Below are positions 1,663 to 28,703 of a DNA stretch of 32,000 nt, one piece after another. The notes under the pieces were generated by a model. That model did not search any database. It saw only the letters and a program-made list of their open reading frames with translations, and had not been told where the DNA came from. Where the stretch lies: NCBI RefSeq assembly GCF_036323395.1, contig NZ_AP028907.1, positions 1,170,001-1,202,000 on the forward strand. The letters run 5' to 3'. The stretch's first letter is position 1. Each line of letters begins with the position of its first letter. The DNA comes from Pyrodictium abyssi. GTDB lineage: Archaea; Thermoproteota; Thermoprotei_A; Sulfolobales; Pyrodictiaceae. The translations under genes and the position numbers were made by a program.

Positions 1663-1664
1663 CA

Positions 1665-2267: not shown

Positions 2268-2318
2268 CCCCGGCGCACCGACCGGTACACAGCCCATGCC
2301 ACACGGGGGATACCCGCC

Positions 2319-3116: not shown

Positions 3117-3148
3117 CCAGGAAGCCACCATCTACACCGTAAACGCCG

Positions 3149-5319: not shown

Positions 5320-5494
5320 CTACACCCTTGTTCCTCCCGTGTAGCGTAGTATAGCGGCCCGGGACGGGGGCATAAGCGTCTATGGCCCCCGGGGCGCCCG
5401 GTGATGCCGGGCCCATTGCGTACCCTGTCGTCCTGCTTGGCCGTGCATCTTTTCTCGGTGATACCGGGGGTGTTGTAGGCGGGCTCTCCCGGCC

Positions 5495-6199
5495 TTGTCT
5501 AAGCGTTTCGAGCGCATGTATGCCCGGCTGGCCGTGCTCGCGGAGAGGATGGGCGTCGGGGATCTCCTCGGCCCGGTCGTGGAGAGGCTCGCGGCGCTCT
5601 ACAGCCGGGGCGTGCTGGGCGCGAGCCACGTGGTGCTCGAGCTCGTCGCCGCTGGGTGGCTCGCCCGCGAGGGCTACACGGTGTCGGTGGAGGAGCCTGT
5701 GGACGGGCTCATAGCCGACGTGGTGGCCAGGGCGGGGCGCGAGATGCTCCTGGTGGAGGTCGAGACGGGCTACACTCCGCCCCGGTGGAGCCACGCGCCC
5801 CTAGCCTACCACGCGGCCCGGCTAGCGGCCAAGACCGCCCGGTACAGCAGGCTCGGCGACAGATTCGCCCTCGCCTACCCCCTGGGCTACGCCGCGCCCC
5901 TGCACCCCGCGCTGCTCGAGCCCCCGTGGCGCCGGAGCCAGGGGATGCTAGCGGAGCTGAAGAGCCTGGTTGACCGGTTCTACAGGAGGCCACCCATACC
6001 CCTAGAAGCCTTCATGGATGCACGTCTCGACGCTGTGCTCCTCCTCGACCCAGACAACGCCGCGGCCTACTGGGCCCCGCCGAGCCACGCCCCCGGCCTA
6101 CAGGTGCTGGCGCTCCAGGCGGCGCTCTCCACCCTGACCAGCCCCGGCGGCGAGCCAGGCACCGCCAGCCCGGTGGCGGCTACCTCTGCGCCGTCCTAG
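5495..6199 (+). CDS. Hypothetical protein with a possible PD-(D/E)xK nuclease-like core
   Basis: 234-aa ORF with host-like codon usage (TTG at 5495 or ATG at 5516). GLIADVVARAGREMLLVEVETGY resembles a D...(E)xE/K restriction-endonuclease-fold core. The opposite-strand ORF 5213-5794 is R/P-rich shadow. Confidence 0.55.
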   Translation: MSKRFERMYARLAVLAERMGVGDLLGPVVERLAALYSRGVLGASHVVLELVAAGWLAREGYTVSVEEPVDGLIADVVARAGREMLLVEVETGYTPPRWSHAPLAYHAARLAAKTARYSRLGDRFALAYPLGYAAPLHPALLEPPWRRSQGMLAELKSLVDRFYRRPPIPLEAFMDARLDAVLLLDPDNAAAYWAPPSHAPGLQVLALQAALSTLTSPGGEPGTASPVAATSAPS

Positions 6200-7577
6200 C
6201 GGCTGCTGGCTCTATAACCCGGTTGTGGTGGAGCCACTCGAGGTCTACGGCTATATGGTGCTCCTCTAGTATTGGCTCGTCCAGCCCCCGGGCTACCAGG
6301 ACGTAGTAGTTCCTGGGCGAGGCTAGCCCGGTCTCGCCCGCCTTCTCCTCGAGCTTCTCTAGCGCTCGGCGCGCGTCGGCCCTGCTCAGCCGGGCCCACT
6401 TGGCCTCGATGAAGGCCGTTGCTCTGCCGGGGCTCCTCAGCACCAGGTCTATCTCCATGCCCCGGCGCCACCAGGGCCCCGCCTGCCGCGGCTCCAGGGG
6501 CAGAATGCCCCGCTCCACCATGCGGGCGGCCAGCTGCGGCACGATTGTCTCCTCGAACGCCCGCCCCATGTAGCTGTCTAGCTCCCCGAGTATGGCGCGG
6601 CGCGCCTTCTCCACGGCGCCAGACTCTATCAGGCTCCTCAACGGGAGTATGAAGCTGAACCAGAACCTGAAGAAGTTGTCTCTGAACCGTAGCTGGACGG
6701 GCCTCCTCCTGCCCAGGGGCCGCACCCTCCCCACCAGGTCCAGCTCCTCGAGGACCTCGATGTAGCGGCCGATACTCCTCGGGTCCACTCCCGCTGCCTG
6801 GGCGGCCTCGCTCGGCTCCACCCTGCCCTCGGCGACGGCCCGCAGCAGTGCAAGGTATGTGCGGGGCTCGCGCAGCTCCTGCCGTAGCAGCAGCACCGGC
6901 TCGTCGAGGAGCGGGCTCCCGGGACGAGTAGCCTCCTCTACGAGCTTCTCAGCGGAGGCGCCGGGCCCCAGGAGCGCTAGGTAGGCCGGTGTGCCCCCGG
7001 CTACCCCGTAGAGACGGGCAGCCTCCACAGCGGTAAGCCCTGGGTTGAAGCCCCAAGCCTCCCAGAACGCCATTGGGCGTAGCCTTAGCTGCCCAGTGCG
7101 GCGGCCGTAGAGCGGCGCCCTGTAGCCGAGCAGCCGCTTCTCGAAGAAGGAGACAGAGGAGCCACAGAGCACCAGCATCATCCCGGAGCCCTTGAGGGCC
7201 GTATCTATGCTCCTCATGAGCCGGCTCGGCAGCGAGGGATCAGCCTCCACAAGGTACTGGAACTCGTCCAGCACCACCACCAGCTTGCCGCCGCCCCGGT
7301 GGAGCCGGGCGAGGGCCTCCAAGACCTCGACAACGTCCCCGGCGACAGGGAGCCCCAAGGCCTCCTTCACCGCCAGGGAGAACTCCCGGGCAAGGCTCTC
7401 GTAGGGCAGCTCAGCAGCCACGTAGTAGACGCATGGCCTGCCGCGGCAGAACCAGCGCAGCAGAAACGTCTTCCCGACACGCCTCCGCCCATACACCACT
7501 AGCAGCCGGAAGCCCGGCTCACGGTACTCCCTTTCGAGGAGCCCCAGCTCCCTCTCCCGGTCAACCAGCACCTCCAC
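6180..7577 (-). CDS. Archaeal ATPase (Arch_ATPase/AAA) with a DUF234-type C-terminal domain
   Basis: 465 aa. DRERELGLLEREY....LLVVYGRRRVGKTFLLRWF (Walker A), LVVVLDEFQYL (Walker B) and a C-terminal GMEIDLVL...AFIEAKW (DUF234-like nuclease-fold tail). Confidence 0.9.
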   Translation of the reverse strand: MEVLVDRERELGLLEREYREPGFRLLVVYGRRRVGKTFLLRWFCRGRPCVYYVAAELPYESLAREFSLAVKEALGLPVAGDVVEVLEALARLHRGGGKLVVVLDEFQYLVEADPSLPSRLMRSIDTALKGSGMMLVLCGSSVSFFEKRLLGYRAPLYGRRTGQLRLRPMAFWEAWGFNPGLTAVEAARLYGVAGGTPAYLALLGPGASAEKLVEEATRPGSPLLDEPVLLLRQELREPRTYLALLRAVAEGRVEPSEAAQAAGVDPRSIGRYIEVLEELDLVGRVRPLGRRRPVQLRFRDNFFRFWFSFILPLRSLIESGAVEKARRAILGELDSYMGRAFEETIVPQLAARMVERGILPLEPRQAGPWWRRGMEIDLVLRSPGRATAFIEAKWARLSRADARRALEKLEEKAGETGLASPRNYYVLVARGLDEPILEEHHIAVDLEWLHHNRVIEPAAARTAQR

Positions 7578-7702: not shown

Positions 7703-8305
7703 CTAGCTCCGCGGAGGCAGAATAGCGCCCTTAGTGGACACTACGCCGCTGCTGGGCGACAGGGCCTGCCGCAGAGCCATGCCCAGCGCCTTGAAGGCCG
7801 CCTCGGCCACGTGGTGATCGTTCCCACCGCGGAGCGTGACCACGTGCAGGGTCATCCCGGCGGCCGCGGCCAGGCTCTGCAGGAAGTGCGGAATATTCTC
7901 CGTCGCTAGGCCCCCTATAGCCTCGCGGCGCAGGGGCAGCTCCACCCAGGCCCCAGGCCGCCCCGAGTAGTCCACAGCCACCAGCACAAGCGCCTCGTCC
8001 ATAGGCACCACAGCGTAGCCGAAGCGCGCTACCCGGTAGCCCCCAGAGGCCACAGCCCGGGCCACAGCCTCGCCCAGCGCCAGCGCCAGATCCTCAGCCA
8101 CGTGGTGGTCATCCACACGCTTAACCTCCTCCACGGCTGCGCGGAGACCCCAGCCAGCGTAGTACGCCAGAGTCTCCACCATGTGGTCCAGGAACGGTAC
8201 ACCGGTCGATACACTGGTCTCCCGCAGCTCCTCTCGGTCCAGGTCCAGGTCCACAATCACCCTGGTCTCCTTTGTCCGGCGCTCAACCTTTACCCGGCGA
8301 GCCAA
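7703..8305 (-). CDS. hisB: Imidazoleglycerol-phosphate dehydratase
   Basis: VERRTKETRV.VDLDLD, GVPFLDHM and DDHHVAEDLALALG. The ORF is open to 8407, but the first 34 codons are non-homologous. The TTG at 8305 gives a canonical ~200-aa IGPD. Confidence 0.9.
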   Translation of the reverse strand: MARRVKVERRTKETRVIVDLDLDREELRETSVSTGVPFLDHMVETLAYYAGWGLRAAVEEVKRVDDHHVAEDLALALGEAVARAVASGGYRVARFGYAVVPMDEALVLVAVDYSGRPGAWVELPLRREAIGGLATENIPHFLQSLAAAAGMTLHVVTLRGGNDHHVAEAAFKALGMALRQALSPSSGVVSTKGAILPPRS

Positions 8306-9034
8306 TACAGCACACCCGGGGCCACAGAGGCCAGGCCGCCGGGTAATAGGTCCAGGGGACGGCCCAGCCGTACACGCTGTCTCGAAACAGAGGCCAGGCA
8401 GGCGCACAGGTACACCAGCCCACAGGTAAGCACACCCAGCTAACTATAGCATGCCCAAAACAACACAGCACACGTACACCAGCAGCAGAACAAAACAGCG
8501 CAAGCTACAATATGCGACAAGGCATACAGTATACTTTACACCGGCACCGCTAGAGTCGCACTATATTGCAACTTATTATCAAGGGTGCTTATACTGGGCT
8601 TGTCTTACCTGTGCCCGGGCTTAGCTGTAGCCGGGCCCCGCTACATGTTACCCCAGCGTGCACCAGGCAAGCCAGGCGCTGTAACAGTGAGACCTCCGGT
8701 AGTTAGTTAAGGAGAACCAGGTATAGACGAATTGTATACTTTAGACGTGCGCCCGGCATATAAGTGGCAAACTGCACAGTAAAACTACATGGAGAACAGA
8801 TACGGAGAAAGGTTTGAGAGGTGAACCCGTCTGTGAACAAGCTCGTATACATACTCGTACCCCTAGCGGTCGCCGCGCTAGCAGCCGCAGGCTACGTCTA
8901 CCTAGGAGGCGGAGAAGCAGCCCCAGCGACACAGACAGCAGCCACCGCTGCGCCGGCCGCGACGCAGACAGCTGCACCCCGGGGCGCCCGGGCAGGGCCA
9001 CGGCCCCGGCGCCGGCGGAGGCCCGGCAAGGGGC

Positions 9035-9589
9035 GTGGCTACCAGCGTGCAGCAGCTCCCAGCGCAGCCGCTCTCCGAGGACGAGAAGGAGAGCCTACTC
9101 TACATGGTGGAGGAGAAGCTAGCCCGTGACGCATACAACAGGCTAGCCGAGATGTACCCCGACGTACCAGTGTTCGCCAACATAGCGAGGAGCGAGCAGC
9201 AGCACGTAGACTCCGTGATGCAGCTAATAGAGAAGTACGGGCTCGACGTAGAGCTAGGGCCGCCCGGTGTGTTCCACAACCAGGAGCTACAGAGCCTCTA
9301 CAACGAGCTAGTAGACCGCGGCTCCAAGAGCCTAGAAGAAGCACTGAAAGTGGGCGCACTGATAGAGGAGAAGGACATAGTAGACCTAGAGGAATGGCTC
9401 GCTAAGACCGACAACGAGGACATCAAGCTAGTCTACGAGAACCTAATGCACGGCAGCTTCAACCACCTATGCGCCTTCACAAGGACCATGAAAAGCATGC
9501 TAGGCGTAGACTACAAGCCAGTACTCCTCGACGAAGAGACATACAACAGCATCATATCCAGCTGCCAGATGGGCGGCCCCAAGCGCTAA
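9035..9589 (+). CDS. DUF2202 ferritin-like domain protein (possibly 5'-truncated by a frameshift; see findings)
   Basis: LSEDEKESLLYMVEEKLARDAYNRLAEMYPDVPVFANIARSEQQHVDSVMQLIEKYGL is the typical DUF2202 signature. GTG start at 9035. Confidence 0.8.
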   Translation: MATSVQQLPAQPLSEDEKESLLYMVEEKLARDAYNRLAEMYPDVPVFANIARSEQQHVDSVMQLIEKYGLDVELGPPGVFHNQELQSLYNELVDRGSKSLEEALKVGALIEEKDIVDLEEWLAKTDNEDIKLVYENLMHGSFNHLCAFTRTMKSMLGVDYKPVLLDEETYNSIISSCQMGGPKR

Positions 9590-10121
9590 AGGAATACAGA
9601 GAGAACACAGCCCCAGGGCACAACCCCCTACACAGCACCAACACCCCGACACACGCCACACGCATGAACGTATTTTCTCGCCCCAGGCAGGGACAAGCCC
9701 TCTGCCAGACACCACAGCGAGCGTTAGTGTTACCGTATTCAGTTAGCCTCGGAATACAGCATCTATGGGCAATGTCAGGTCAACGGATTGACCCAAGGTC
9801 TTCGCTGTCACTAAGAATTGATGACAGAAAGGTTAAGTACATGCAGTCAGGCAAGTGATAATCAATAGAGCTGACGGGAGAGGCCTATCCTGTTACAGTC
9901 CTGCATCATGTTAAATACTTTGGCGGGCTGAGAATGCTTTAGGATTTAGTAAAGCATGAATTGAAGCCACCGTCAAATGGACAAAGTGAGATTCAGAGAG
10001 CAAGCATGAAGCTCGTTGCGGGAATTACGGAATCAACAAATTTAGTTGTTTATGAAGTAAGGCGTGTTGAAACGCAGTGTAATTGATTGCTACTATGTGG
10101 CTGAGAATGATTAGACAGAGT

Positions 10122-11129
10122 CTAATTCTCTGCTATGTTATTTGGATGCTGTTTAAGCGATTCTACTAGCTCTTTCACCTTTTGCCAGCATAGGTATTCT
10201 CTCGACAGTCTAGCCAGTTCATTATCTATGTTGGCTACTTCTTTCCAGTCCACACAGCGCAAATATTGGTCATTAGCTAAATCTATGGAAAAGACCCTTA
10301 GGACAAGATATGTGATTATTCCACTGACATCGATAAACTTGTTGAGGTATTTCAGCAGGTATTCGGGAACGGGTTCAAGTTCTATCCAATCCCTATAGGT
10401 AGCAATTCTAGCACCCGTCTCCAAGAATCTGGGATGAACACGGTGTGCATGTCCAGAGAGTTCGCTGTAATAGTCATGTATTATTTTAAAAAGATGGCCA
10501 TCTATAATGCCCCAGTTCTTTAACTGTTCTAGAAGCTTGGCGAATGCAGCACTTGGATTAAAATCTGTCAGCTTACTTTCCATTAAGTCAAACAAGTATG
10601 CTGATGGTACAATTCTACTATCTCCTATTTCTTTCTCGATAAGCTCTAGCAGCTCTTTAAAGCTCTTAGCAGCTTTAAAGCCATTTATCTTCTTCAGATT
10701 CACTGCATTCTTACGGTATTGCGGTATTGCCAGTAGGTCAAAGATTATGCCACGGATAACACTCTCTAGCGCATTACGCAGTTCGCTGAAAGCTACACTG
10801 TAATAGCCTGTAAGAGCTGATAGAAGAGAATACCTCATAAGCATTACAGCATCATAATGATAGACTATTAGTGCTGTATGTAGTTGCCAAAACTCGTTGA
10901 AGATCTCCTCGTTGCATACATTTTTTGAAGGCATAAGACCAACAATTAATTCTCCAGAGCTGTTCATTGCACTCATTAAGTTATCAATTATCTCAGCCAC
11001 GCTCAACGTGCTATAAACCGATGGTAAAGCCTCAATATTATCGCTCACTTTGCTAATGTGAGTGCTCATATTTTTTGAATATGTATAGTACAAAATCGGT
11101 AATTCGTGCAAGCTTACGTAAAGTTTCAT
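10122..11129 (-). CDS. Hypothetical helical protein, a distant member of the same family as 12304-13038 and 13255-14037 (HEPN/DUF4145-like, tentative)
   Basis: 335-aa AT-rich ORF. It shares two blocks with the paralogs: LTGYYSVAFSELRNALESVIRGIIFDL and GIIDGHLFKIIHDYYSELSGHAHRVHP. Compare ALRQILEAITIAVYMD and YGLLSSYIHPF in the 13255 protein. Confidence 0.6.
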   Translation of the reverse strand: MKLYVSLHELPILYYTYSKNMSTHISKVSDNIEALPSVYSTLSVAEIIDNLMSAMNSSGELIVGLMPSKNVCNEEIFNEFWQLHTALIVYHYDAVMLMRYSLLSALTGYYSVAFSELRNALESVIRGIIFDLLAIPQYRKNAVNLKKINGFKAAKSFKELLELIEKEIGDSRIVPSAYLFDLMESKLTDFNPSAAFAKLLEQLKNWGIIDGHLFKIIHDYYSELSGHAHRVHPRFLETGARIATYRDWIELEPVPEYLLKYLNKFIDVSGIITYLVLRVFSIDLANDQYLRCVDWKEVANIDNELARLSREYLCWQKVKELVESLKQHPNNIAEN

Positions 11130-11467
11130 CCTCGTTCTTATTATTGTTACTCCGTAGCTCCACAGCTATCCCTAAGCTCTTTATAGACAACCAAGAAGCT
11201 ATATTTAAATTTTATAGTATAATTTCCTCGATTACTCTGTAAAAGGGCTCATACAAGGACAAGGGATGACCGTATAATGGTTCCGTATAATGATAGGAAA
11301 CCACGAGACACTTAGTCTGACGCTTTAGAGTCCATAATCTGCAGAATCTAGCTCTATGCACGATACGTCGGTAACCGGGATGAGCTTGAATGAAATAGCC
11401 CTGTAAGAATCCAAGAAGCTAGATATCAGCTTACAAGCACTTCATGTTATAATGATTGGCGTGATTC

Positions 11468-11983
11468 TTATAATGAGCTTTTTATCCTTAACGCTGGCCC
11501 TAATTGATAGCACATTATAATTCTTCTCGAGTTGTCTAGCATGATTTTTAGGGTGATAATGTTGAGGGCTTTCCTGGAGGCAAGTAATGTCCCAGCCAGC
11601 AGGCTGGCTAGGAGGAGTTTAGCAGCCGTTTGGATGTAGCTGGCCTTTTCTACTAGCTGACTATAGGCTTCTGGTCGAAGACGCCGTGCTACATTGTCTA
11701 CGAGATGTTGTGCTACATGCTCGTCGAGGACCAGAGCGCTAGAATAGAGTGCCCTCATAGCATAGCTTTTGCCGGTATTCGGTGGGCCTAGGGGCAGGGT
11801 CACGTCTCCTAGCGATAGCTCTGCGCTTCGGACGGGGCCGAAGTTCTCTAGGATAAGCTTCACTGGAGGTTCCCCTGCATATAGCCGCTGCACTCCTAGC
11901 CCTACCGGGCAGGGGCGACGCCCTATCAGCCTACCGTCACGCTCACAGCATGCCATTCTCCTGGGCGGTACATGAGACAGCAT
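11468..11983 (-). pseudogene. N-terminal relic of a P-loop (SMC/ABC-like AAA) ATPase
   Basis: VKLILENFGPVRSAELSLGDVTLPLGPPNTGKSYAMRAL is the N-terminal strand plus Walker A of an AAA_15/21/23-type ATPase. The ORF stops after ~170 aa with no Walker B or signature motif downstream. Its 5' part is distinctly GC-richer than the surrounding island. Confidence 0.5.
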
Positions 11984-12303
11984 AAGCAGAAACCTTCTAA
12001 GGGTACATGAGGAGCGACTATCCTGTAGCTTGGGTTATTGCCCTTCTCAGGGCCGTCTCAGAGGACTGGTACCTAACTAAACATGGCTCTAATCTATGCC
12101 TAGCTCCTTGCTTGGCCCCGACAACAGTCAGCCGGCCAAGTGCGAACCGTAGCCTGATTCCCGGATGATGGGCGGGCTTAATTTGCGGGACTTTTTTATA
12201 GCAGATCCTGGCAACTGGTAATGAAACGGATGAGATGCATGCATGAGATAATGTTGGTAAGGCTGAGCACTTAAGGGATGTATCCGATGAGCTTGATTCA
12301 CTT

Positions 12304-13038
12304 GTGGAAATGGAGTATGGGCTTGTATGGGCTGCATGCAAGTATGGTCTAGAGAATTTCAAGTACGCGGCGAGGAATGCTCGTGGGTTTATTCAGTCTT
12401 GTAGCGAGCTATCGGATACAGTTGAAGAGGTCTTCATGAAGTATTTTGTTGATATCGAGGATAACCTAGTAGGGGAGACTGTAACGCCTGCGGCACTACT
12501 CTACGTTATCGTGCCTCTAGGGTTTTTGTCCTATGTTTGCACGGTGGCTCTTCATGGCGCGTTGCCTTATGCAGCGGCTGGCCTAAGGCTTATTGTTGAA
12601 GCATTAACACTATCAGTATATGTTGATACTAAGTTTCCGGATAAAAGCTATGAGGAAAAACTAGACCTAATGTCAGAGAAGTATAATACATTTAGTGCCG
12701 TTGCTGAGGAGCTAAGAAGGTATGCAAAGATAGATAATAGACTTATAGATGACGTTATTACTGTATGGCGTGAAACATCAGCCTATCTCCACTTTGTTAA
12801 TCGTGCCCGAAGGGCTGGTGCGAAAGGCATACTCCGCCTAGTCGAGAAATATGTAGAGGAGCACGGTGCTCCTCCAAGCGGCTTCACTATACCGTTGCCA
12901 ACAGAGTTCCTCTTCGAGCATGATGCCAAGGAGCTAAGAAGGCTGGAAGAACTAATTAGATTAGTTACCAAGATTGTGCCTGGACTCCTTGAAGCCTGGG
13001 CAAGAACGCTCAGAGAGCACAGAGCTGGAGCTAACTAG
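12304..13038 (+). CDS. Hypothetical helical protein, paralog of 13255-14037 (HEPN/DUF4145-like, tentative)
   Basis: 244 aa. It is clearly alignable to the next gene: FMKYFVDIED / FLKYFVYIEE; LSYVCTVALHGALPYAAAGLRLIVEALTLSVYVDT / PGYVCTSILQAAIPLAYFALRQILEAITIAVYMDT; WRETSAYLHFV / YGLLSSYIHPF; EEHGAPPSGFT / DEHGIPPTFAT. Confidence 0.7.
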   Translation: MEMEYGLVWAACKYGLENFKYAARNARGFIQSCSELSDTVEEVFMKYFVDIEDNLVGETVTPAALLYVIVPLGFLSYVCTVALHGALPYAAAGLRLIVEALTLSVYVDTKFPDKSYEEKLDLMSEKYNTFSAVAEELRRYAKIDNRLIDDVITVWRETSAYLHFVNRARRAGAKGILRLVEKYVEEHGAPPSGFTIPLPTEFLFEHDAKELRRLEELIRLVTKIVPGLLEAWARTLREHRAGAN

Positions 13039-13284
13039 TTCTCCTATTCTTGGTTATGGCCGGAGACCGATACTGGATAACATCGGTGGTTGCAGTTACA
13101 AGTGAGTTTGTTGAAGAGTCACTGAGAAGAACTTGATTGATGCAAGCGTGTTATTCACTGTGTAGCTAGTCTCTAATAGCTGATAGGCTGATAGTATGTA
13201 TTGTGAAAAATATAAATAGATAAGAATGCTAGCTAGATACTGTCAAGCCGTGAAGTGTATACATGGCTGGAGGGATCTGATGGG

Positions 13285-14037
13285 ATGAAGTTAAAGGAGG
13301 AGCGTGGGGAGTTTGAGCAATTGAAGCGCTTTTACGTTGAGAATAGCTGCGAGGTAGCGCATAGTAACTTTAACTACATCCTTAAGATTGATAAAGGCTT
13401 GATCATAGCCTGTGACGAGTTCTATGAAATATGCATAGAGTTGTTTCTCAAGTACTTTGTATACATAGAGGAAAGTATAAAGGGAATCGACCCGGAGACA
13501 TACTTTAAGAGATATCTCCTGCCCTCCGTGCTTTTCTACATAGTAGCGCCGTTTCCTGGCTATGTGTGTACAAGCATACTCCAGGCCGCAATACCCCTTG
13601 CATACTTTGCGCTTAGGCAGATACTTGAGGCAATTACAATAGCCGTGTATATGGACACATGTCCGAGGTACAAGAACCTAGACTATGAAAGAAAGGCAAG
13701 GGAGGCCAGAAGGCTCACATTCTCTGATACACTTGGCTACTTTGAGCGGATAGACAGAGGACTCGCAGAGAACCTCAGAAGACTCTACGGTCTCCTCTCG
13801 AGCTACATACATCCCTTTGCCAGGAAGGGCCTGGGAGGTCTTGTGAGCCTTGCCGACAGATCGCTAGACGAGCATGGTATTCCTCCAACCTTCGCAACTG
13901 CATTTGCATTATCAAAATACACGGGAGGTAAGGCCGACGAGACTGAGCTTGCCAGGTTAAAGAAAACGATATATGAGACAGCTAGGCTAGTCATAGAACT
14001 AATAAACGTATGGCTCATGTACATTGCCAGAGGGTAA
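13285..14037 (+). CDS. Hypothetical helical protein, paralog of 12304-13038 (HEPN/DUF4145-like, tentative)
   Basis: The ORF is open from the GTG at 13255. The ATG at 13285 is preceded by GGAGGG. An AAAATATAAATAG TATA-like box lies at ~13209-13221. Paralogy evidence is given for the previous feature. Confidence 0.7.
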   Translation: MKLKEERGEFEQLKRFYVENSCEVAHSNFNYILKIDKGLIIACDEFYEICIELFLKYFVYIEESIKGIDPETYFKRYLLPSVLFYIVAPFPGYVCTSILQAAIPLAYFALRQILEAITIAVYMDTCPRYKNLDYERKAREARRLTFSDTLGYFERIDRGLAENLRRLYGLLSSYIHPFARKGLGGLVSLADRSLDEHGIPPTFATAFALSKYTGGKADETELARLKKTIYETARLVIELINVWLMYIARG

Positions 14038-14062
14038 CTGCAGAAAACGGGACTGGCATAGT

Positions 14063-15034
14063 TTATATCAGAAAGGTGTGCAGTTCCACGGATAGGTTTC
14101 TTGCTGCTAGGTCTACAGTATCTATTCGTCCCTCGGCTATCAGTTCTAGTAGCTTTTCAGCTGTTAGCTTAGCTTTATCTTCTCTTGTTATCCTCCTAGC
14201 AGCTTCTAGGATTGGTTTTAGGTTATCCTTTGAGAGCGTATGTATTGCTTCGCGTGCCTCTTCTTCAAGATTTTCTCGCAGAGCTCTTGCTAGTAGCTCT
14301 GTCGGTGTTTTGCCGTCTGTGCGTACTATTATTACTGCTATGGGTTTGTCCCGATGATGTCTTGCCAGTAATTTTGCGTAGCGTGCTGCCTGTAGTAATG
14401 GATTATGGCTCGCCGTTGCTATAGTTCCTTCCTCGGGAGTCTTTATTTCAAAAACTACTGCCATGCCAGTACAGTCTACATAAAGGTCTAGCCTTGCTCC
14501 AGTCGCAAAGTAGTGCTCCAAGTTTACAGTTTCACAGTCGGGAGGAAGTAAACTGCAAAGAACATGTTTTAACGCCTCCTTGAATGTCTCTCCGTCAAGC
14601 CTTAGAGTGAAGAGTGTGTCCAAGATTATTATGAGCTTTTCTGCGGTATTGTCTGAGGGTATTAAACTGAGTAGCTGCCCTACATGTGCCGCTACGTCTG
14701 TAGGACTTATTCCCGTCGAATACTGCATAGTATGATGTTGACTTCTGCATCTTACTGTAAGTGCATCCCAAGGTATGCTATCGTAGTGTTGCAGCCTCAT
14801 CACTTTGAGTCCTCTAACACTATGTCTAACAATGTAGGCTTTCCATTTCTCCTCAAGCTTTTCAGCAGCTTCAGGACTTATTGTCTCTACTTTCCTTACT
14901 ATGTTTCTATAGGTCTCTAGGGGCACGCAGACCAAGTCACCTACGTTCTCGCCTAACGATGATAGGATTATCTCAGACAGTGCGAGGTAGAGGGCTGTTT
15001 TGTCAACCGTTTTCCGCCTCGTTTTCCTCCTCAA
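14063..15034 (-). CDS. PD-(D/E)xK nuclease-fold protein with a basic N-terminus and a helical C-terminal tail
   Basis: 323 aa. The TTG start lies 4 nt after the stop of the upstream gene and is preceded by GGAGGT. The core is E173-H..ARLD183LYVD186...VVFE196IK198, followed by LLQAARYAKLL and PIAVIIVRTDG. This order is typical of PDDEXK/Rpn-like nucleases. The N-terminus is MRRKTRRKT. Confidence 0.7.
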   Translation of the reverse strand: MRRKTRRKTVDKTALYLALSEIILSSLGENVGDLVCVPLETYRNIVRKVETISPEAAEKLEEKWKAYIVRHSVRGLKVMRLQHYDSIPWDALTVRCRSQHHTMQYSTGISPTDVAAHVGQLLSLIPSDNTAEKLIIILDTLFTLRLDGETFKEALKHVLCSLLPPDCETVNLEHYFATGARLDLYVDCTGMAVVFEIKTPEEGTIATASHNPLLQAARYAKLLARHHRDKPIAVIIVRTDGKTPTELLARALRENLEEEAREAIHTLSKDNLKPILEAARRITREDKAKLTAEKLLELIAEGRIDTVDLAARNLSVELHTFLI

Positions 15035-15038
15035 GCGC

Positions 15039-16367
15039 TCATACCTCCGAGGCTATTTCGTTGGCGATTTTTGTCTTGGTAAGCTGTATAGAGTCCCTTA
15101 GTGGTTCGAGGAGAAGGCTTCTGATTTCCTCTCTAATCCGGCTTTCAGACATACTTGAGTAGGTGAACATGGAGAGATTAAGCATGTTTATGCCAAGATA
15201 GTTGTAAGTTGAGTTATTTATAGCTAAGCTTCTAGTCTCGGCCGGCACAGCGCCTACTATTAGATCAAGATCGAGTCCATTGCGTGGCAATCTGAGGGAG
15301 AAGAATGTTATTTGGGGCGTTCCCTTGGCCTCAAGATCGTTAAAGAATTCGTCAGGATCCTTGTAGTTTAGTAGTTGCGCTGCTACTTCTTCTGCTGACA
15401 CCTTTCTATCAGGACCTATTATGCCCCCATACGCTATTATACGATACTTTATCCCACTCACGCGAAGTACAACAGCTTTGCCGCCACGCCTTTTTACTTG
15501 ACCGTATAGGGCTTTCGCCAGCCTATTGGGGCCAATAGCGTTTATAACATCATAACCTGTTAACGTATCTACATCCCTGTTACTAGCATAACGTATTATC
15601 GCTTGAAACGCTGCTGTGAACGTTCTAACTTGTTTGGTTATAATACTTGGCCCATACAAGCGGACCTCTATTCCGCTTATATCGCTATTTGGACTCACTA
15701 AAGCTATTCCAGCAGGCTGGTAGCTTGTGAAACGTATGCTCGGGGAGCTAAGATTTAGAGTCCCTCCTATCGACACTCCAAGGTTTACCACACGTAGAGA
15801 TCCTGAAGCAAGCAGAAGTGGTATCCAATCTCGTCCTCCCACTCTTATATAGGGGCTATCTCGTCTAGTTAAGGGTAGAATCCATAAATTAGTGCCCCTA
15901 TAGCTATACATGAAGCCTCTCTCATAAACTACTAATGCAGCCCTTCTATCTACTTGTCTATTTGTAACGAGCTCTCCTCTATTAACCTCAAATTCCAGCC
16001 TTGTGCTATCAACGGGTTTAAGCGTTGCCTCGTTGCTCGGGAGTATACCTGCAACCATATCATCTATAAGCTCGCTAGGTCTAGCGTTTTGAGGAAATAA
16101 GAATACTATACGCCCTCTTGAATAAAGGTTAAGTTCCTGATTATTCTTAATATCGTCAACTATACTTTGTATGAGGTCCTCTTGGTGTATCTTTCCAAGA
16201 CACTCATACCTACCAAGAGGCCTCTTTTTAATTGATGTATAGCAGTCAGCTAGCTGTTGCAAAGTCTTGGTGGGAGTGGCTTGTTGCAGAAACACATAGT
16301 AGGGTATAGCGTCTGCAGAGAACTTCCTTATTGTGCTGGACATGCCTACCCCTATAGTGGCTAACAC
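15039..16367 (-). CDS. Unknown beta-rich protein; candidate divergent, catalytically inactive short Argonaute (MID-PIWI-like). This is a hypothesis from motif order only.
   Basis: 442-aa ORF from the GTG at 16367; the ATG at 16343 gives 434 aa. An ATATATAAT TATA-like box lies at 16378-16386. Ordered motifs (aa numbering from 16367):
- YYVFLQQ (23-29).
- RIVFLFPQ (86-93).
- ILPSN (108-112).
- RGTNLWIL (157-164; compare the PIWI motif K-L-G-G-x-x-W-x-L).
- NLGVSIGGT (195-203).
- AVVLRVSG (298-305; compare the hRDG strand, which is HVSG in Archaeoglobus Piwi).
There is no P-loop and no DEDX set. Confidence 0.45.
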   Translation of the reverse strand: MLATIGVGMSSTIRKFSADAIPYYVFLQQATPTKTLQQLADCYTSIKKRPLGRYECLGKIHQEDLIQSIVDDIKNNQELNLYSRGRIVFLFPQNARPSELIDDMVAGILPSNEATLKPVDSTRLEFEVNRGELVTNRQVDRRAALVVYERGFMYSYRGTNLWILPLTRRDSPYIRVGGRDWIPLLLASGSLRVVNLGVSIGGTLNLSSPSIRFTSYQPAGIALVSPNSDISGIEVRLYGPSIITKQVRTFTAAFQAIIRYASNRDVDTLTGYDVINAIGPNRLAKALYGQVKRRGGKAVVLRVSGIKYRIIAYGGIIGPDRKVSAEEVAAQLLNYKDPDEFFNDLEAKGTPQITFFSLRLPRNGLDLDLIVGAVPAETRSLAINNSTYNYLGINMLNLSMFTYSSMSESRIREEIRSLLLEPLRDSIQLTKTKIANEIASEV

Positions 16368-16448
16368 TATAGGTGAGATATATAATGCTGCAGTACTATT
16401 GAGCCAGCTAGGCCAACTAAGGCGTCTCTAAGTTCCATAGCACCATAA

Positions 16449-16679
16449 TCATCGCATGCATCTACTACCATCCCCTAGAAGCCTCATGGTGGTTTGATCG
16501 AGGCTTACCAGCTCGAGTCTGATTCTCTTCCTGTCTAGCTCGTATTCTCTTGTTGCCTCGGCTTCGTCGGGGAGGGGTTCATCTACGCCTAGAAGCCTTT
16601 CCTCTAGCAGGGCCTCGATCCGCTTCAGCGTAGCCTGGAGACCGCGTATCTCCTCTAGTAGCTGTTTCTCTACAGACAA
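16449..16679 (-). CDS. Small coiled-coil protein (antitoxin-like archaeal family), uncertain
   Basis: 76 aa with a TTG start. LLEEIRGLQATLKRIEALLEERLLGVDEPLPDEAEATREYELDRKR..ELVSL resembles small archaeal helical proteins that end in a ...vsLeel motif. It is GC-richer than its neighbours. Confidence 0.4.
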   Translation of the reverse strand: MSVEKQLLEEIRGLQATLKRIEALLEERLLGVDEPLPDEAEATREYELDRKRIRLELVSLDQTTMRLLGDGSRCMR

Positions 16680-16789
16680 GCTACTAGGGCACCCCGTTGC
16701 TACGGTATGAGCAGGCTCTGGGGGCGGTTAAGCTGCTCCTTCTATCTTCACGTCCTGGCCTCTAGCCTTAGGGAAATACATGGAAACAA

Positions 16790-17545
16790 TTAGAGCAGCC
16801 TAACTATAAACGAGTCCAGGTCTGTGTCCTCCAAGCCGTCTTGTATGCCTGCTATCAGCTCCCGCAGCATAGCCCTCCATGCCGGGTCAGCATTGTCTAT
16901 AAGATGCTTCACCTTCTCCACCACAACTGTCACTCCAGCCTCCTTCACATTTCTTGGCAACTCTCCTTCAACTACCTCATGGCAGTGCTTTCTCACGTCT
17001 TTATCACAGTATTCTACACTAGTAATGGGACTTCTCGGCACTACTAGTGCTATCCAGCATTCCGCACTACATTTCCACGACGCTATGCATATCTTAGGTC
17101 TGTCAGGCCGCCTAATACATAGTGACGCAAAGTACTTACCTCCGTGCTGTATTGGTTGAACTTCTTTATCCTTCTTGTTTCTCACAATGATCTCTTGTAT
17201 GATTTTCCAAAGTCTTTGATAATACTCGTTTGCCCTATCAGTAGGCCTATCTGAATCGCTATCCACTATTACCGCCAGACACACTTCTGCATTAGGGACA
17301 GACCGAATGAATGCTTCAGTGGCTTTAATTATTTCTTTCGTGGCATCCCTTACATTCTTTATCCCTCCGGCTGGATATATAGCAATGCATCCTGCATCGA
17401 GGAAGCATTCCCACATGTATTCTTTTATTTCTTCTATGTTACTGGAATAGTAGAGGTCATAGTTATCCGAGACCGCAGCACCTAAGAGATAGACGTCATA
17501 CAATCCCTCTGTTACTATGATCGCGTATTTACAGCCACTTAGCAA
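16790..17545 (-). CDS. TOPRIM-like (DUF4435/OLD-type) putative nuclease, partner of the upstream ABC ATPase
   Basis: 251 aa. The TTG start is preceded by AGGAGGTG, 36 nt after the ATPase stop. The pattern AIIVTEGLYDVYLL (TOPRIM Glu) ... IYPAGGIKNV ... LAVIVDSDSD (DxDxD) matches the DUF4435/OLD TOPRIM layout. Confidence 0.65.
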   Translation of the reverse strand: MLSGCKYAIIVTEGLYDVYLLGAAVSDNYDLYYSSNIEEIKEYMWECFLDAGCIAIYPAGGIKNVRDATKEIIKATEAFIRSVPNAEVCLAVIVDSDSDRPTDRANEYYQRLWKIIQEIIVRNKKDKEVQPIQHGGKYFASLCIRRPDRPKICIASWKCSAECWIALVVPRSPITSVEYCDKDVRKHCHEVVEGELPRNVKEAGVTVVVEKVKHLIDNADPAWRAMLRELIAGIQDGLEDTDLDSFIVRLL

Positions 17546-17581
17546 CGCTATGCACCTCCTGCTATGCTATTGACTAGGGAG

Positions 17582-19183
17582 CTATATGCCGCGCAACTCT
17601 ATACCTATTTCCTTTGCCTCTAAGATCTCTCTGCCCTTAAATACTGAGTATACCTCTCCGTTCGACATCAAGACAGTCTTAACCTTGTCGAGAACACCAT
17701 GCCTCATAGCTCTTTTGGCGATAAAGCGTATCAGCTCCATGCTATGAGTGCTGAGCAACACAAGAGCACTAGGATTCTCTTTAGTAGCTCTCGCTATGCT
17801 ATCTGCAAGTACCATTAAGTAGCCTGGGTGGAGTCCAGTCTCGGGCTCTTCAAGGATAAGTACTGTCTGGGGCTGCCTCCTAGCTAGAACTAGACCTGCT
17901 AGCAAGGCTAATAGCAGCAGGGTACCATCGCCGAGTAACGCTGCAGGTATTCTCATACCGTCCTTTCTCAGAAGGACTTCATTCTCTTTAATGATAGGAT
18001 CCTCTAGATTGAGACTTCTGATGCTTCTAATAACGTTACCATAGTCTCTAAGGAGTCCAAGATCATGAACTTTGTCTACTATTTTCTCTAAGGTATTTGC
18101 GCCAAAGATTTCATGGCGGATAACAGTACTTCTTCGAAATACTGTGTAAACATTCCATTCCGTCTTTTCATTGGCCTTTCCATCGTTGAGGTTTACTCTG
18201 TACTGTGCTGTCCATAAGTTATCTATAGTCCTTCTCAGTTTCTTCCATATACACCGCCTAATCATTTTTCCTAGTTCTTTACCTAGCTGGAGCTTAGCGT
18301 AGACTGAATATAAGTCTTTTAATTCAGCTCTCTCTAAGATTATCCCTGTCATATTTATTATGTTACGTACGAAGACTGCTTCAAGATTACTAAGTTCTTC
18401 GTAGTATTGTTTCTCCTTGCTTACACCCATTCTAAAGCGTGGCAAGTATAAGTAGGATGATCCATTCAGCTTTATAACTATGCTATCATCTATGATTGGC
18501 CTAATTATCCTGTTGACATGCTCCCTTAGGGTTAATGCTGCAGATTTTAGGGCAGGCTCACTTTTGTATATACTTCTCGCTAAACTTTCTGGAAGCAATA
18601 TAGGTTGTACTATTTTTTCTATCGATAACCTTTCTTCACAAGTTGATTCTGCAAGATGAGCTATAATGTACCCTATAGTGAACATTATCGTTGTTAACGC
18701 TTCACCCTCTCTAGTGTAGCTAGCAAAGGCTTTTCTGAGACATCTGTATGCTTCGCCTTCACTTGTCAGCTCATCGTAGAGGCTTTCTCTGATTTTTTGA
18801 AGCATCATACATAGGAATTGATTATTTATTGTGCTATTTGGCTTAGCTATCCTTACTATTCGGGCGCCTTGGTCATCCATCTTGAGATTTAGATTTATGG
18901 TTGCCTCTTCTCTGCATGTCAAGTTCAATAGCCTACTTGGGTGCCCAGCGAGCTTGTCGTCTATTATCATGCGGGCTATGTCGTTGCCGAGCCAGTCTTG
19001 TAGGCTAGGTGCTGAGAATGCGAGGGCTAATGCCTCGAGGACTGAGGATTTGCCGGCGTTATTCCTGCCGGTGAGTATAGTTATCGGAGCCAGCTCTAGC
19101 TTAACCTCTTTTACTCCTCTGAAGCACTTGATCTTGGCTACGCCAATAGGGCTATCCTGCTTGGTCTCTTTTGCTTGCTCCAT
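17582..19183 (-). CDS. ABC-type AAA ATPase of the AAA_15/AAA_21 (OLD N-terminal / AriA / RloA-like) family
   Basis: 533 aa. Walker A TGRNNAGKSSVLEAL, a long helical insert, a signature-like LLGDGT, Walker B VLILEEPETGLHP and H-loop LLSTHS. Confidence 0.9.
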   Translation of the reverse strand: MEQAKETKQDSPIGVAKIKCFRGVKEVKLELAPITILTGRNNAGKSSVLEALALAFSAPSLQDWLGNDIARMIIDDKLAGHPSRLLNLTCREEATINLNLKMDDQGARIVRIAKPNSTINNQFLCMMLQKIRESLYDELTSEGEAYRCLRKAFASYTREGEALTTIMFTIGYIIAHLAESTCEERLSIEKIVQPILLPESLARSIYKSEPALKSAALTLREHVNRIIRPIIDDSIVIKLNGSSYLYLPRFRMGVSKEKQYYEELSNLEAVFVRNIINMTGIILERAELKDLYSVYAKLQLGKELGKMIRRCIWKKLRRTIDNLWTAQYRVNLNDGKANEKTEWNVYTVFRRSTVIRHEIFGANTLEKIVDKVHDLGLLRDYGNVIRSIRSLNLEDPIIKENEVLLRKDGMRIPAALLGDGTLLLLALLAGLVLARRQPQTVLILEEPETGLHPGYLMVLADSIARATKENPSALVLLSTHSMELIRFIAKRAMRHGVLDKVKTVLMSNGEVYSVFKGREILEAKEIGIELRGI

Positions 19184-19369
19184 AGCCCTCCCACTCCACC
19201 TACAGGCTACAATGCATTATACCGTTTCAAAACCATGAGTGTCGATGCCGGGTTCGATACCGTGAGCTTTCGGCTGTGGAGGGTTCATAGCTGTACTGGT
19301 CTTTGCGGCTCTTAAGTACCCTGCCCGGGAATGTGTGGCGTTGCTGGTGCTCGGGGTCTTTTGCAGTCT

Positions 19370-20116
19370 TTATAGTATGCCTAGTGGGTTGAGCCGCCAG
19401 GTGTAGAGGGCCATGCCTGCTACTGCCTCGTCGTAGCCCATGGCGGCGAGGAGCTCTAGGTCCCGGGGGCCCGCTATGCCCCCGCTGTATGCTAGCCGGG
19501 GTGCGCCGGCCTCCCGGGCCTGCCGGGCTAGCCTGGCTGCGCGGTGGAGGTCTACGCCGCGCTGCTCGCCCTCGTGGAAGACCTGGGTGTAGAATAGCCC
19601 CCAGATGCCGCGGGTGCTTGCTGCCTGCTTCACGGCCTCGGCTAGGGTCATGGGCTCCCTGCTGCGCCACGCGCTTGTGGCGGGTAGCGCGTCCCAGTGC
19701 TCCTCGACGGCTGGGACCAGTACGCCGGGGCCTAGCGCGTCCACGGCCTCCTGGAGGAACTCGGGGCGGCGGAGCCACGCGCTCGCGACCACCAGGCGGT
19801 CGGCGCCCGCGCTGTGGGCCTCTTCTAGGGCGTCTATGCTCCGGAGCCCGCCGCCTAGCTGTATCGTGGCCCCTGTCTCCCTCTTGGCCCACTCCACGAG
19901 CTCTAGGACGCACCTGCTAGGCCTGCCCCTGGCCGCGCCGTCCAGGTCGACTATGTGGAGGACCGTGGCGCCGAGGCTGTGCCAGAGCAGGACGAGGCGC
20001 CGTGGGTCTCCGAGGCGTAGCCCGGTGCCGGGCACGCCCCGGACCAGCTTGACGGCCTCGCAGCCGGCCACGTCTATGCTGGGTACGAGCCGGGGCCTGG
20101 AGAGGAGGCTTGGCAT
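19370..20116 (-). CDS. hisA: ProFAR isomerase (HisA)
   Basis: The ATG at 20116 lies 2 nt after the hisG stop; the ORF is open to 20233, but that extension is R/P-rich. Motifs VPSIDVAGCEAVKLVRG, LHIVDLDGA, IQLGGGLRS and AYSGGIAG. Confidence 0.9.
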   Translation of the reverse strand: MPSLLSRPRLVPSIDVAGCEAVKLVRGVPGTGLRLGDPRRLVLLWHSLGATVLHIVDLDGAARGRPSRCVLELVEWAKRETGATIQLGGGLRSIDALEEAHSAGADRLVVASAWLRRPEFLQEAVDALGPGVLVPAVEEHWDALPATSAWRSREPMTLAEAVKQAASTRGIWGLFYTQVFHEGEQRGVDLHRAARLARQAREAGAPRLAYSGGIAGPRDLELLAAMGYDEAVAGMALYTWRLNPLGIL

Positions 20117-25052: not shown

Positions 25053-26062
25053 GTGCTGAAGGCGGACAAGGTCGACGCGGGGGCCCTTAAGAGGCTCTGG
25101 AACCGGCTGGGCTTCCACGAGTACGGGCCGCCCTACGAGGCTAAGCGCGTCCTCGTGGAGCCGGGGCGCGGGAAGAGGCTCGAGGATATAGGCAGGTGCG
25201 ACCCGTCGAGAAGTTCCAGCCGGGCTGCATAGACTACGCTGAGGACGCGGTGGTCGTCGACCTGGTTAAGGCAGGGAAGAGGCAGAGCGTGGTCGCCAGG
25301 GTTATCGAGAAGAGGCTCCGCGACGCCCTAGCCGAGAAGGATCCCCGTGGCTCCTTGAGGCGGTAGAGGAGTACCGTGGCTATAAGGAGTCGTGGGGCGA
25401 GAAGCCGCTACTACTCCGCGACCTCGCCTCGGGCCTACTCGCTAGCGAGGCGGTGGCCATAGTCTACCCGCCCCGCCGTGGCTTCGGGCTGCTGGGGAAG
25501 AGGCCCCACCGCTGTGTGTGGAGGCTCTACAGCTCCAGGCTGAGGGCCAGGGTTGGGCGGGGACGGCCGTGTCCGCGTATACCGGGACACGGCGCTCGTG
25601 CAGCTAGACTCCCCGGTGGCGGGCGAGTACCAGGACTACACCTACGGGCTCCTCGTGGAGGGGCTCCACGGCTCGTCCCCGGAGCTCATAAGGCTCGGCC
25701 TAGCCACGCTCTGCGTCTACCTGAGGAGGGCCCACGGTGTCCCCCTGGGGCTCCTCAAGTACAGCGTCTACGCGCTCGGCGAGAAGAGGCTGATAGAGAT
25801 CCACGAGGAGGCTGCTGCCGGCCTACTGGTGCAGCTAGACTGGGCCCAGGTCTCCCGCGGCCTACAGGGCTACCGCCCAGGCGACCTGGACGAGATACTG
25901 CTGCTAGAGCTGGACGAGTACGCCTACCAGGCCCTAGAGAGCCTCGGCTTCGACTGGCAGCGCGCAGCCGCGGAGGCAGCGCGTATAGCCGATACGCTGG
26001 CCGGTAGGCAGAGGGTCGAAGTAGCCCTAGCAGGCCGTAGGATACGGGTGTCTAAGCCATAG
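25053..26062 (+). pseudogene. Hypothetical gene disrupted by about three frameshifts; the last intact frame is 25553-26062
   Basis: Coding-like, GC3-rich segments follow each other in different frames:
- 25053-~25200: VLKADKVDAGALKRLWNRLGFHEYGPPYEAKRVLVEPG.
- ~25200-25350: VEKFQPGCIDYAEDAVVVDLVKAGKRQSVVARVIEKRL.
- ~25350-25545: PWLLEAVEEYRGYKESWGEKPLLLRDLASG...
- 25553-26062: the 169-aa ORF.
The shifts fall at C/G runs. Confidence 0.5.
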
Positions 26063-27985: not shown

Positions 27986-28032
27986 GAGGATGTTACGAAT
28001 CCGGCAGCATTTCCTAGAGTAATTCTCCAGGG

Positions 28033-28476: not shown

Positions 28477-28703
28477 CTCTCCTCCCTCATTGACCTAATT
28501 GTTTCGACTATCCGCTCCTCCGGTACCTTCTCAAGGATCTTTCCAGCCCTCTCCAGCATCTTCTTTACTTCCTCTTCCTCCCTCTTGGCAACCTCTTCCT
28601 CCAGAGCTCTGTTTATAACCTCGCTGACATCAATACGGTACTTGCGGAGTTTATCCCAGAGTTCTTTCCGAATCCTCGTAGACACGGTAACATAAGACTC
28701 CAT
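28473..28703 (-). CDS. vapB: VapB-type antitoxin
   Basis: 76 aa. VTVSTRIRKELWDKLRKYRIDVSEVINRALEEEV has an RHH-like N-terminus and a charged helical tail. It overlaps vapC by 4 nt. Confidence 0.75.
   Translation of the reverse strand: MESYVTVSTRIRKELWDKLRKYRIDVSEVINRALEEEVAKREEEEVKKMLERAGKILEKVPEERIVETIRSMREER

Follow-up and report, generated by a model that had tools for sequence, protein, structure and literature searches.

The window analysed here is a stretch of 32,000 nucleotides (nt) from the archaeon Pyrodictium abyssi (contig NZ_AP028907.1, positions 1,170,001 to 1,202,000), and the subject of this work is an island of low guanine plus cytosine (GC) content that lies between hisA and a gene for a DUF2202 protein. 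The island comprises nine main open reading frames (ORFs), named A to I, one of which (B) is a gene fragment. It is compositionally foreign to the host genome by GC, GC at third codon positions (GC3) and tetranucleotide usage. It has two layers, an older one formed by the I-H gene pair (16752-19369), which is common to relatives at the same site and under purifying selection, and a strain-specific one of 7.2 kb (9513-16751). We consider the locus a horizontally acquired variable region at a fixed hotspot, hisA-DUF2202/hisB, that was assembled in at least three steps by recombination and carries mainly defence cargo, and we give this reading a probability of roughly two in three.

The annotation of the island, which spans the locus tags PABY_12940 to PABY_13010, is hypothetical throughout except for one 'AAA family ATPase'. 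The products of H, C, E, G and I, and of the flanking hisA, match P. abyssi proteins at 100% identity. An earlier sequence-only reading of the window had counted eight or nine ORFs here; the number is nine if the fragment B is included. The features of the island and its two flanks are as follows.

9590-19369: low-GC block, the interval between the DUF2202 stop and the hisA stop
8821-9589, + strand: DUF2202 gene, left flank (Pfam DUF2202, E 9e-47; GC3 0.76)
10122-11129, - strand: gene A, 335-amino-acid (aa) orphan
11468-11983, - strand: ORF B (PABY_12940), 171 aa, truncated N-terminal P-loop fragment of a second AAA_15-type ATPase
12032-12116, - strand: ATPase_2 (PF01637) relic, 85 nt, the 3' end of a gene that occupies this position in sister populations
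12304-13038, + strand: gene C (PABY_12950), 244 aa, tandem paralogue of D
13255-14037, + strand: gene D, 260 aa, member of an all-helical family
14063-15034, - strand: gene E (PABY_12970), 323 aa, second gene of the F-E cassette
15039-16367, - strand: gene F, orphan of 442 aa that opens the F-E cassette
16449-16679, - strand: gene G (PABY_12990), 76 aa, GC 0.53 (intermediate)
16751/16752: breakpoint, about 38 nt past the H stop
16790-17545, - strand: gene H, 251 aa, 36 nt downstream of I
17100-17545, - strand: recombination tract in H, about 450 nt, H residues 1 to about 130
17582-19183, - strand: gene I (PABY_13010), 533 aa, ABC-type ATPase of the AAA_15/AAA_21 group
19370-20116, - strand: hisA, right flank (Pfam His_biosynth)

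Composition of the block and states of the site in relatives

In 500-nt windows, core DNA has a GC content of 0.65-0.76, as compared with 0.37-0.55 over positions ~9750-19250, and a two-state hidden Markov model (HMM) returned one low-GC segment across the locus (9333-19378, mean GC 0.45). GC3 is 0.79-0.89 in the core genes hisD, hisH, hisI, hisB, hisA, hisG, Bmp and SDH, and 0.39-0.56 in the island ORFs A to I. Tetranucleotide usage, corrected for base composition, correlates at r = 0.68-0.82 between core segments, at r = 0.27-0.52 between island and core, and at r = 0.50-0.71 within the island. These measures bear out the abrupt change in composition that the sequence-only reading had described at both edges. 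The edges themselves also lie where it had put them, after the DUF2202 gene and upstream of the ATPase start. Specifically, the hisA stop codon (19370) forms the right edge, 187 nt from the ATPase start at 19183, and the left edge is directly 3' of the DUF2202 stop (9589). The HMM boundary falls within the DUF2202 gene because the overall GC of this gene is low (0.56); its GC3 is core-like (0.76), and the gene is therefore a flank and not part of the cargo. Two GC-rich patches embedded in the block (11760-12000 and 16449-16790) had been cited as part of the case for recombination between foreign and resident DNA. They do not qualify as resident DNA, since their GC of 0.50-0.58 is intermediate and below the resident level. 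The first patch, most of which is covered by B, adjoins the true ATPase_2 relic, and the second, which corresponds to gene G, sits at the 16751/16752 breakpoint.

The comparison set consisted of metagenome contigs of relatives, which represent four or five genomes or populations. L045, L046 and L047 are sister populations with the same overall gene order as the window, to which their core genes are 89-93% identical; the shorter contigs L002-L005 were assigned to the L045 type. L006, which comes from the same sample of the European Nucleotide Archive (ENA) as L045 (ERZ23486590), is 88.6% identical to the window on hisG-hisA. L007 (17.4 kb) and L008 have about 78% nucleotide identity to the window, and L001, L013 and L014 are more distant relatives with a HisA identity of 63-64%.

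At least four states of the hisA...DUF2202/hisB interval exist: that of the window, those of the L045 and L006 types, and the empty site of L007. In L007 and L008, hisG, hisA and hisB are contiguous with a 134-nt spacer, and neither DUF2202 nor any island gene is present; the similarity to the window stops at 19371 and restarts at 8270. The alignment with relatives that had been proposed as a check therefore did locate the empty site with its junctions, and it confirms the placing of the island within the histidine gene cluster. The L045-type contigs L045, L046 and L047 are colinear with the window from 21228 to 16752 (hisG through I and H). They then have 2.7 kb unrelated to the window, which contain a MazE/AbrB-like ORF of 95 aa, a PIN-like fragment and a GC-rich ATPase_2 gene of 334 aa, before the similarity restarts at window position 9512 within the 3' end of DUF2202. 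In L006, gene I is reduced to its first 81 codons and followed by 3.8 kb of low-GC ORFs without similarity to the window; the similarity ends at 19368, the right edge, and restarts at 9599 with an intact DUF2202 gene of 246 aa. Pfam and PADLOC scans of the neighbour genes in L006 and L009 gave nothing meaningful. In the distant L001, L013 and L014, the order is hisG-hisA-PAP2-...-IleRS in GC-rich DNA. A hisA search of genome contigs led to a 63%-identical metagenome-assembled genome (MAG) of Hyperthermus, the downstream region of which is not syntenic and does not help to place the junctions.

The junctions are spanned by independent metagenome contigs, i.e. hisA-I by L003, L045 and L046, H-DUF2202-hisB by L002 and L045, and hisA-DUF2202 by L006, which rules out chimeric assembly. 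Two Pyrodictium-like populations co-occur in sample ERZ23486590 with different cargo at the hisA/DUF2202 site. One of them has an intact I-H pair and the ATPase_2 gene, the other an 81-aa stump of I and five orphan ORFs. The different cargo of L045 and L006 in one sample points to within-community polymorphism of the hotspot.

The DUF2202 gene is itself variable. In the window it is split over two frames, with a membrane anchor in ORF 8821-9129 and the DUF2202 domain in ORF 9035-9589. The intact L006 gene has the same N-terminal anchor (64% identity over 28 aa), and in L045 and L002 the gene is shortened at its 3' end (116 aa). The frameshift lies in a low-complexity linker and may reflect an error in sequencing, a pseudogene or a restart within the gene. 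A metagenome scan with DUF2202 returned relatives at 40-61% identity only and did not recover the Pyrodictium locus.

Gene content of the two layers

The island had been treated as one unit in the sequence-only reading, which does not hold for its right-hand 2.6 kb: this part, I-H, is common to the sister populations, and its divergence is about that of core genes. Gene I contains a Walker A motif (GRNNAGKSS), a Walker B motif (VLILEEPE) and, near its C-terminus, the sequence STHS (H-loop). Its Pfam matches are AAA_21 (E 2e-22) and AAA_15 (E 7.5e-22), the latter covering residues 17-485 of 533 and profile positions 7-374 of 374; Toprim is not among them. Among the PADLOC models, AriA scores best (E 7e-23 and 1e-22), and HEC-01A, NsnB, PDC-M38A and AbiLi follow at 1e-18 to 1e-21. 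By these matches, the AAA_15/AAA_21 family of I is clear, and I is the only ORF of the island with a firm family assignment; as several sister ATPase models are near-equal, they single out no subfamily. A weak match in the PDB to the OLD nuclease 6p74 is restricted to the N-terminal P-loop. At the amino acid level, I is about 90% identical to its counterparts in L003 and L045 at the same site, with a synonymous divergence (dS) of 0.32 and a ratio of nonsynonymous to synonymous divergence (dN/dS) of 0.15. For the same lineage pair, hisB has a dS of 0.23 (hisB from L002, I from L003), and the overall dN/dS of H is 0.24. The proximity of the two dS values, together with the low dN/dS of I and H, indicates that the pair has been passed on vertically, with its function maintained, ever since the sister populations split off. 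The GC content of I-H is about 0.43 in both P. abyssi and the sister populations and shows no drift toward that of the host.

Gene H has only three homologues among 5.8e9 proteins, each adjoining the same ATPase at the locus where the contig reaches it. The family has the invariant motifs VTEG...AGG...VDSDxD, of which VTEG and DSDxD suggest a Toprim-like fold. Neither H nor two of its homologues matched Pfam, including DUF4435 and Toprim up to E 5. H had no sequence match in the PDB, including the solved AriB and OLD structures, and profile searches gave only uL16-like noise. Along the pair, the identity to L003 is about 0.9 over 19250-17600. Over 17545-17100 it falls sharply, to 0.57-0.67, before it recovers to 0.83-0.91 over 17160-16790. 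In the tract of low identity, dS is 1.70 and dN is 0.34 (dN/dS 0.2), as compared with a dS of 0.21-0.53 in I and the rest of H. As dS and dN are raised together, the tract is attributed to an allele swap by homologous recombination. Positive selection on the divergent N-terminus of H was considered and rejected, because dS is raised as much as dN.

The strain-specific layer meets the I-H layer at the breakpoint 16751/16752, and the blastn similarity of L002-L005 and L045-L047 ends at 16752 in every case. Midway in this layer lies the ATPase_2 relic, which is 76% identical (E 1e-9) to the gene in L002, L003, L045, L046 and L047, colinear with it and correctly oriented. The relic splits the strain-specific DNA into a part with G, F-E, D and C (12117-16751) and a part with B and A (9590-12031), so that at least two replacements or insertions are needed. 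On the A side, only residues 42 to about 123 of B match, and they cover positions 2-82 of PADLOC profiles of about 460 residues (PDC-M47A, E 6e-8; PD-T4-4_A, E 8e-8); the match to AAA_15 has an E of 0.0013. On the other side, G has no family match in Pfam, NCBIfam, PHROG or PADLOC and is absent beside the F-E pair in L009.

Genes F and E form a cassette. F has one homologue among 5.8e9 proteins (P0124, 53% identity) and no match in Pfam, PADLOC, PHROG, PDB, phages or plasmids. E matches two Pfam nuclease models below threshold, PDDEXK_4 (E 0.024, 15.0 bits against a cut-off of 22.3) and PDDEXK_9 (E 0.08, 13.3 against 25.5), and has weak PADLOC matches (E 0.002-0.006). The motif D183...E196-I-K198 is kept in its only homologue (L009, 43% identity), and at the motif level E is a probable PD-(D/E)XK nuclease; its N-terminal 160 residues have no family match. 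In L009 and L010, a homologue of F is again followed by a homologue of E after a gap of 3-4 nt, here with dTDP-sugar and glycosyltransferase genes as neighbours. Since F-E recurs in a different genomic context, it is a portable two-gene cassette.

Genes C and D are 32% identical to each other (E 2e-31). A search with their profile recovered 40 family representatives among 1.84e9 proteins; those with a name belong to MAGs of archaea (Hecatellales, Nanoarchaeota), where their annotation is hypothetical. The homologue with genomic context (L015) lies among orphan ORFs adjoining a sugar-biosynthesis cluster. In an alignment of 29 sequences, R121, E125, D134 and H186 are invariant, with the R and the H 65 residues apart. 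No Pfam or PDB sequence match was found for C or D. The AlphaFold 2 (AF2) model of D is all-helical and has a predicted local distance difference test (pLDDT) score of 92.5 and a predicted template modelling (pTM) score of 0.89, and Foldseek found no significant neighbour for it in the PDB (best E 0.5, template modelling (TM) score 0.37) or in BFVD. The family may represent an uncharacterised enzyme fold. Gene A has no family match in Pfam, NCBIfam, PHROG or PADLOC and no relatives in IMG/VR or JGI metagenomes. Its hhalign alignment to the C/D profile (E 0.0067, probability 5.7%, 35 columns) is limited to the R-x3-E-x8-D helix, a hint that A may be a distant relative of C/D, which we do not count as a finding.

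The sequence-only reading had called the proteins of this island HEPN-like proteins, ATPases and nucleases. The HEPN assignment of A, C and D is rejected: they have no HEPN family match and no Rx4-6H motif, and among the PDB matches of the confident D model the HEPN structure 1ufb appears only at rank 37 (E 3, TM 0.26/0.46), which is not significant. As to the ATPases, one is intact (I) and one is a fragment (B). The nucleases fared less well, E being supported at the motif level and the Toprim likeness of H being weak. Firm PADLOC matches are confined to I and the fragment B; H and E have weak ones, and A, C, D, F and G have none.

Turnover of the site and role of its cargo

The locus is an integrase-less variable hotspot that probably has a role in defence. 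A domain scan of the nine main ORFs against Pfam, NCBIfam and PHROGs, which left the small overlapping ORFs unscanned, found no integrase or transposase. The window contains no tRNA gene and no match to Rfam families. Direct or inverted repeats above chance were found neither at the edges nor anywhere in the window (14-25 nt only), and the same applies to repeats resembling miniature inverted-repeat transposable elements (MITEs); a single trivial tandem repeat occurs in the window. No microhomology or duplication was found at the mapped breakpoints. The sequence-only reading had reported the same lack of an integrase, a transposase, a tRNA target and a flanking repeat, and its proposed search of the junctions for short direct repeats returned nothing above chance. 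That integrase, attachment (att) repeats and tRNA target were not found matches turnover without site-specific integration. The same reading had suggested repeated recombination instead of one clean integration, and this has direct support in the three cargo sets found at the site in relatives, the 85-nt relic and the ~450-nt tract in H with its dS of 1.70.

At least three steps would have led to the present island. In the ancestor shared with the sister populations, DUF2202, the GC-rich ATPase_2 gene and the low-GC I-H pair would have been placed between hisA and hisB, in one event or more. Next, the DNA from H to DUF2202 would for the most part have been replaced in the lineage of P. abyssi, with G, F-E and C-D as the new content on one side of the ATPase_2 relic and the B fragment and A on the other. 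The 5' part of H would then have been exchanged for a more divergent allele by homologous recombination. Such turnover would operate through incoming DNA that recombines on the conserved flanks (hisA to one side, DUF2202/hisB to the other), the I-H pair serving as an anchor inside the island, and through illegitimate joins as well. We infer that flank recombination and illegitimate joins, not a site-specific integrase, drive the changes at this site.

With lower confidence than for the turnover, we propose that the cargo mainly defends against viruses or plasmids. The I-H pair would resemble a split system of the OLD/PARIS/AbiL type, in which an ABC ATPase acts as sensor or scaffold and controls a small nuclease-like effector. 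In F-E, one of the two genes of the cassette would encode a nuclease. C and D, and perhaps A as well, would be helical proteins that share a conserved polar R/E/D/H site. One could go further and see the island as a small store of uncharacterised conflict systems of archaea, in which at least one of I-H, F-E and C/D (perhaps with A) protects hyperthermophilic archaea from viruses or plasmids by a new mechanism and is swapped by flank-guided recombination without an integrase; this extension is tentative, and we lean against it at present.

Several points weigh against a hotspot of defence genes that turns over by recombination. As to its history, no junction bears the signature of a joining mechanism, and the small overlapping ORFs are outside the integrase scan. 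The polarity of gain and loss was judged more by composition than by phylogeny; with hisA-hisB in L007 and hisA-PAP2 in the distant relatives, synteny alone would also allow a loss in L007. As to function, only one of the nine ORFs (I) is solidly linked to known defence families, and ATPases of the AAA_15/21 group also occur outside defence. Orphan genes are H, F, G, A, C and D. The PADLOC match of H is a weak one to PDC-M38B (E 0.003-0.01) that the other two family members do not share, and the structure model of H from the three-sequence alignment is unusable (pLDDT 43.6).

A competing explanation accepts the mosaic island as real and takes its cargo for something other than defence. The genes would be either addiction modules of a selfish kind or unrelated accessory functions, which gather at an intergenic site that is permissive. 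It is in keeping with the six of the nine ORFs that lack any family assignment, with the MazE-like and PIN-like toxin-antitoxin remnants that the sister populations carry at the same place, and with the homologues of F-E and C/D elsewhere, which lie beside sugar-biosynthesis clusters and not beside known defence genes. Against it stands the best-characterised gene of the island, an ATPase of the AriA/OLD/AbiL type that is under purifying selection and has a dedicated partner. The island also encodes a defence-type ATPase fragment (PD-T4-4_A) as well as a protein of PD-(D/E)XK-like character, and fast cargo turnover and allele swapping are typical of conflict systems. We regard a non-defence cargo as unlikely, although it is the strongest of the competing explanations.

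It is improbable that the block goes back to the integration of one element, be it a virus, a plasmid or another integrative element, which then decayed and lost its integrase and attachment sites. The low GC, the orphan genes and the position right after the stop codon of a gene would fit an old integration. However, integrase, tRNA and repeats are lacking, and the search for virus or plasmid relatives, another check that had been proposed, was negative: tblastn and blastn searches with F and 8 kb of island DNA gave no match in INPHARED phages or PLSDB plasmids, and D, I and A have no relatives in IMG/VR. Moreover, the two layers, the resident-type relic in the middle of the block and the different cargos in relatives require several events. 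Least probable of all, and largely refuted, is the notion that the low GC is native, i.e. that a resident region owes its composition to functional constraint or to an assembly artefact without horizontal transfer. The I-H pair, with a GC of about 0.43 in both lineages and no amelioration over a dS of about 0.3, could be cited for it, but the GC3 of 0.39-0.56 differs from the 0.79-0.89 of core genes, the block is absent from L007, L008, L001 and L013, and the contigs across the junctions rule out a chimera. Weighed together, the evidence favours the horizontally acquired hotspot with recombination-driven turnover.

Other variable segments and known systems

The genes of the wider neighbourhood, in addition to those of the island and its flanks, are listed here.

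92-1363, + strand: hisD
2319-3116, + strand: hisI, with hisE and hisH, likewise on the + strand, between hisD and it
6180-7577, - strand: ATPase_2/DUF234 gene
7703-8305, - strand: hisB

Beyond hisA, Pfam identifies hisG (- strand) and then thioredoxin, HTH-PRTase, Bmp and SDH protease genes. Both the window and L045-L047 have the hisD-hisE-hisH-hisI block in the opposite orientation to hisG-hisA-hisB. L007 has all of its his genes (hisG, hisA, hisB, hisF, hisD, hisE, hisH and hisI) in one direction (window 1-3121 corresponds to L007 11995-15045). Because the window and L045-L047 share this orientation, unlike L007, the inversion is older than the split between P. abyssi and the L045 type.

The HMM marked further low-GC segments in the window at 4247-5089, 8441-8859, 27879-28764 and 30541-32000. 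The first of these (GC 0.46) is included in a second strain-specific indel, 3122-5367, which measures 2.2 kb as compared with 265 nt in L045-L047 and whose ORFs 3149-3568, 3976-4443 and 4289-4570 have no Pfam match. A third strain-specific insertion relative to L045, 25023-27259, is GC-rich (~0.66); it contains two ORFs without family (25453-26007 and 26105-26635) and a PIN-domain gene (26725-27138, - strand, E 6e-12). The segment 30541-32000 has a GC of 0.38 and a GC3 of 0.36, with an ORF weakly matching ParA/CbiA (30874-31950, - strand). The similarity of L007 ends at about 30520, near the start of this segment, and that of L045 stops there only because position 1 of the contig is reached; the segment perhaps marks the border of one more island, which would extend beyond the window. 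Two different PF01637 'archaeal ATPase' genes occur in the neighbourhood, both GC-rich, unlike the other variable DNA. The gene at 6180-7577 (- strand), downstream of hisB, has a DUF234 domain, is common to the L045 type and is absent in L007. The other one, of 334 aa, lies in the island of the sister populations (L045 12967-13965) and survives in the window only as the 85-nt relic.

Islands of low GC with variable accessory or defence genes are a familiar feature of conserved hotspots. For the Pyrodictiaceae, a family that grows above 100 °C, next to nothing is known, as far as we are aware, of gene flux or of defence against viruses. The locus is a natural experiment in that one site is found in four states: empty, with two alternative cargos, and with the mosaic of P. 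abyssi, in which the breakpoints are mapped and a relic of the displaced gene survives. It shows turnover of accessory genes in these archaea that is probably driven by recombination and free of an integrase, a phenomenon that is in itself expected and does not make the locus a new kind of element; its worth is that of a documented case and a supply of candidates. What lifts the locus above the routine is the clean four-state comparison in a family of extreme hyperthermophiles, the mapped allele-swap tract and three gene sets of great rarity, of which the C/D family has a confident predicted structure without a structural neighbour. These sets (H, F-E and C/D) are candidates for experimental defence screens.

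Among known systems, the I-H pair is closest to PARIS, AbiL and PDC-M38. PARIS combines an ABC ATPase of 55 kDa, AriA, with a Toprim nuclease, AriB (PMC11464382). As in these systems (PMC11464382, PMC12409363), an ATPase, for which the AriA, AbiLi and PDC-M38A models give E values of 1e-18 to 1e-23, is followed, here after 36 nt, by a conserved partner of about 250 aa, and the pair is kept together or lost together (L006). Different from them, the partner H has no DUF4435 or Toprim family match and no sequence match to the AriB or OLD structures. An OLD-family nuclease differs in having the ATPase and Toprim in one polypeptide, whereas I has no Toprim match. E resembles the PD-(D/E)XK superfamily in the D...E-x-K core, which is present in both known members; its profile scores are below the Pfam thresholds, and it is paired with an obligatory partner, F.

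As for the site, defence hotspots flanked by core genes have been described in Pseudomonas aeruginosa, where 29-47% of the occupied sites lack a detectable mobile gene (PMC10250203). Two of them, cDHS1 and cDHS2 (PMC10250203), differ from the Pyrodictium site in that both of their flanks carry a tRNA or tmRNA, none of which is found at the Pyrodictium flank. The Pyrodictium island is also far smaller (~10 kb), its host is a hyperthermophilic archaeon and its defence cargo is putative. In archaea, the genomic islands reported for Halorubrum ezzemoulense (PMC11078007) are likewise strain-variable accessory blocks in the chromosome that emerge from the comparison of close relatives. With cDHS1 and cDHS2, the hisA-DUF2202 site shares a fixed position between conserved housekeeping flanks, a cargo that differs from genome to genome, and a majority of genes of unknown function.

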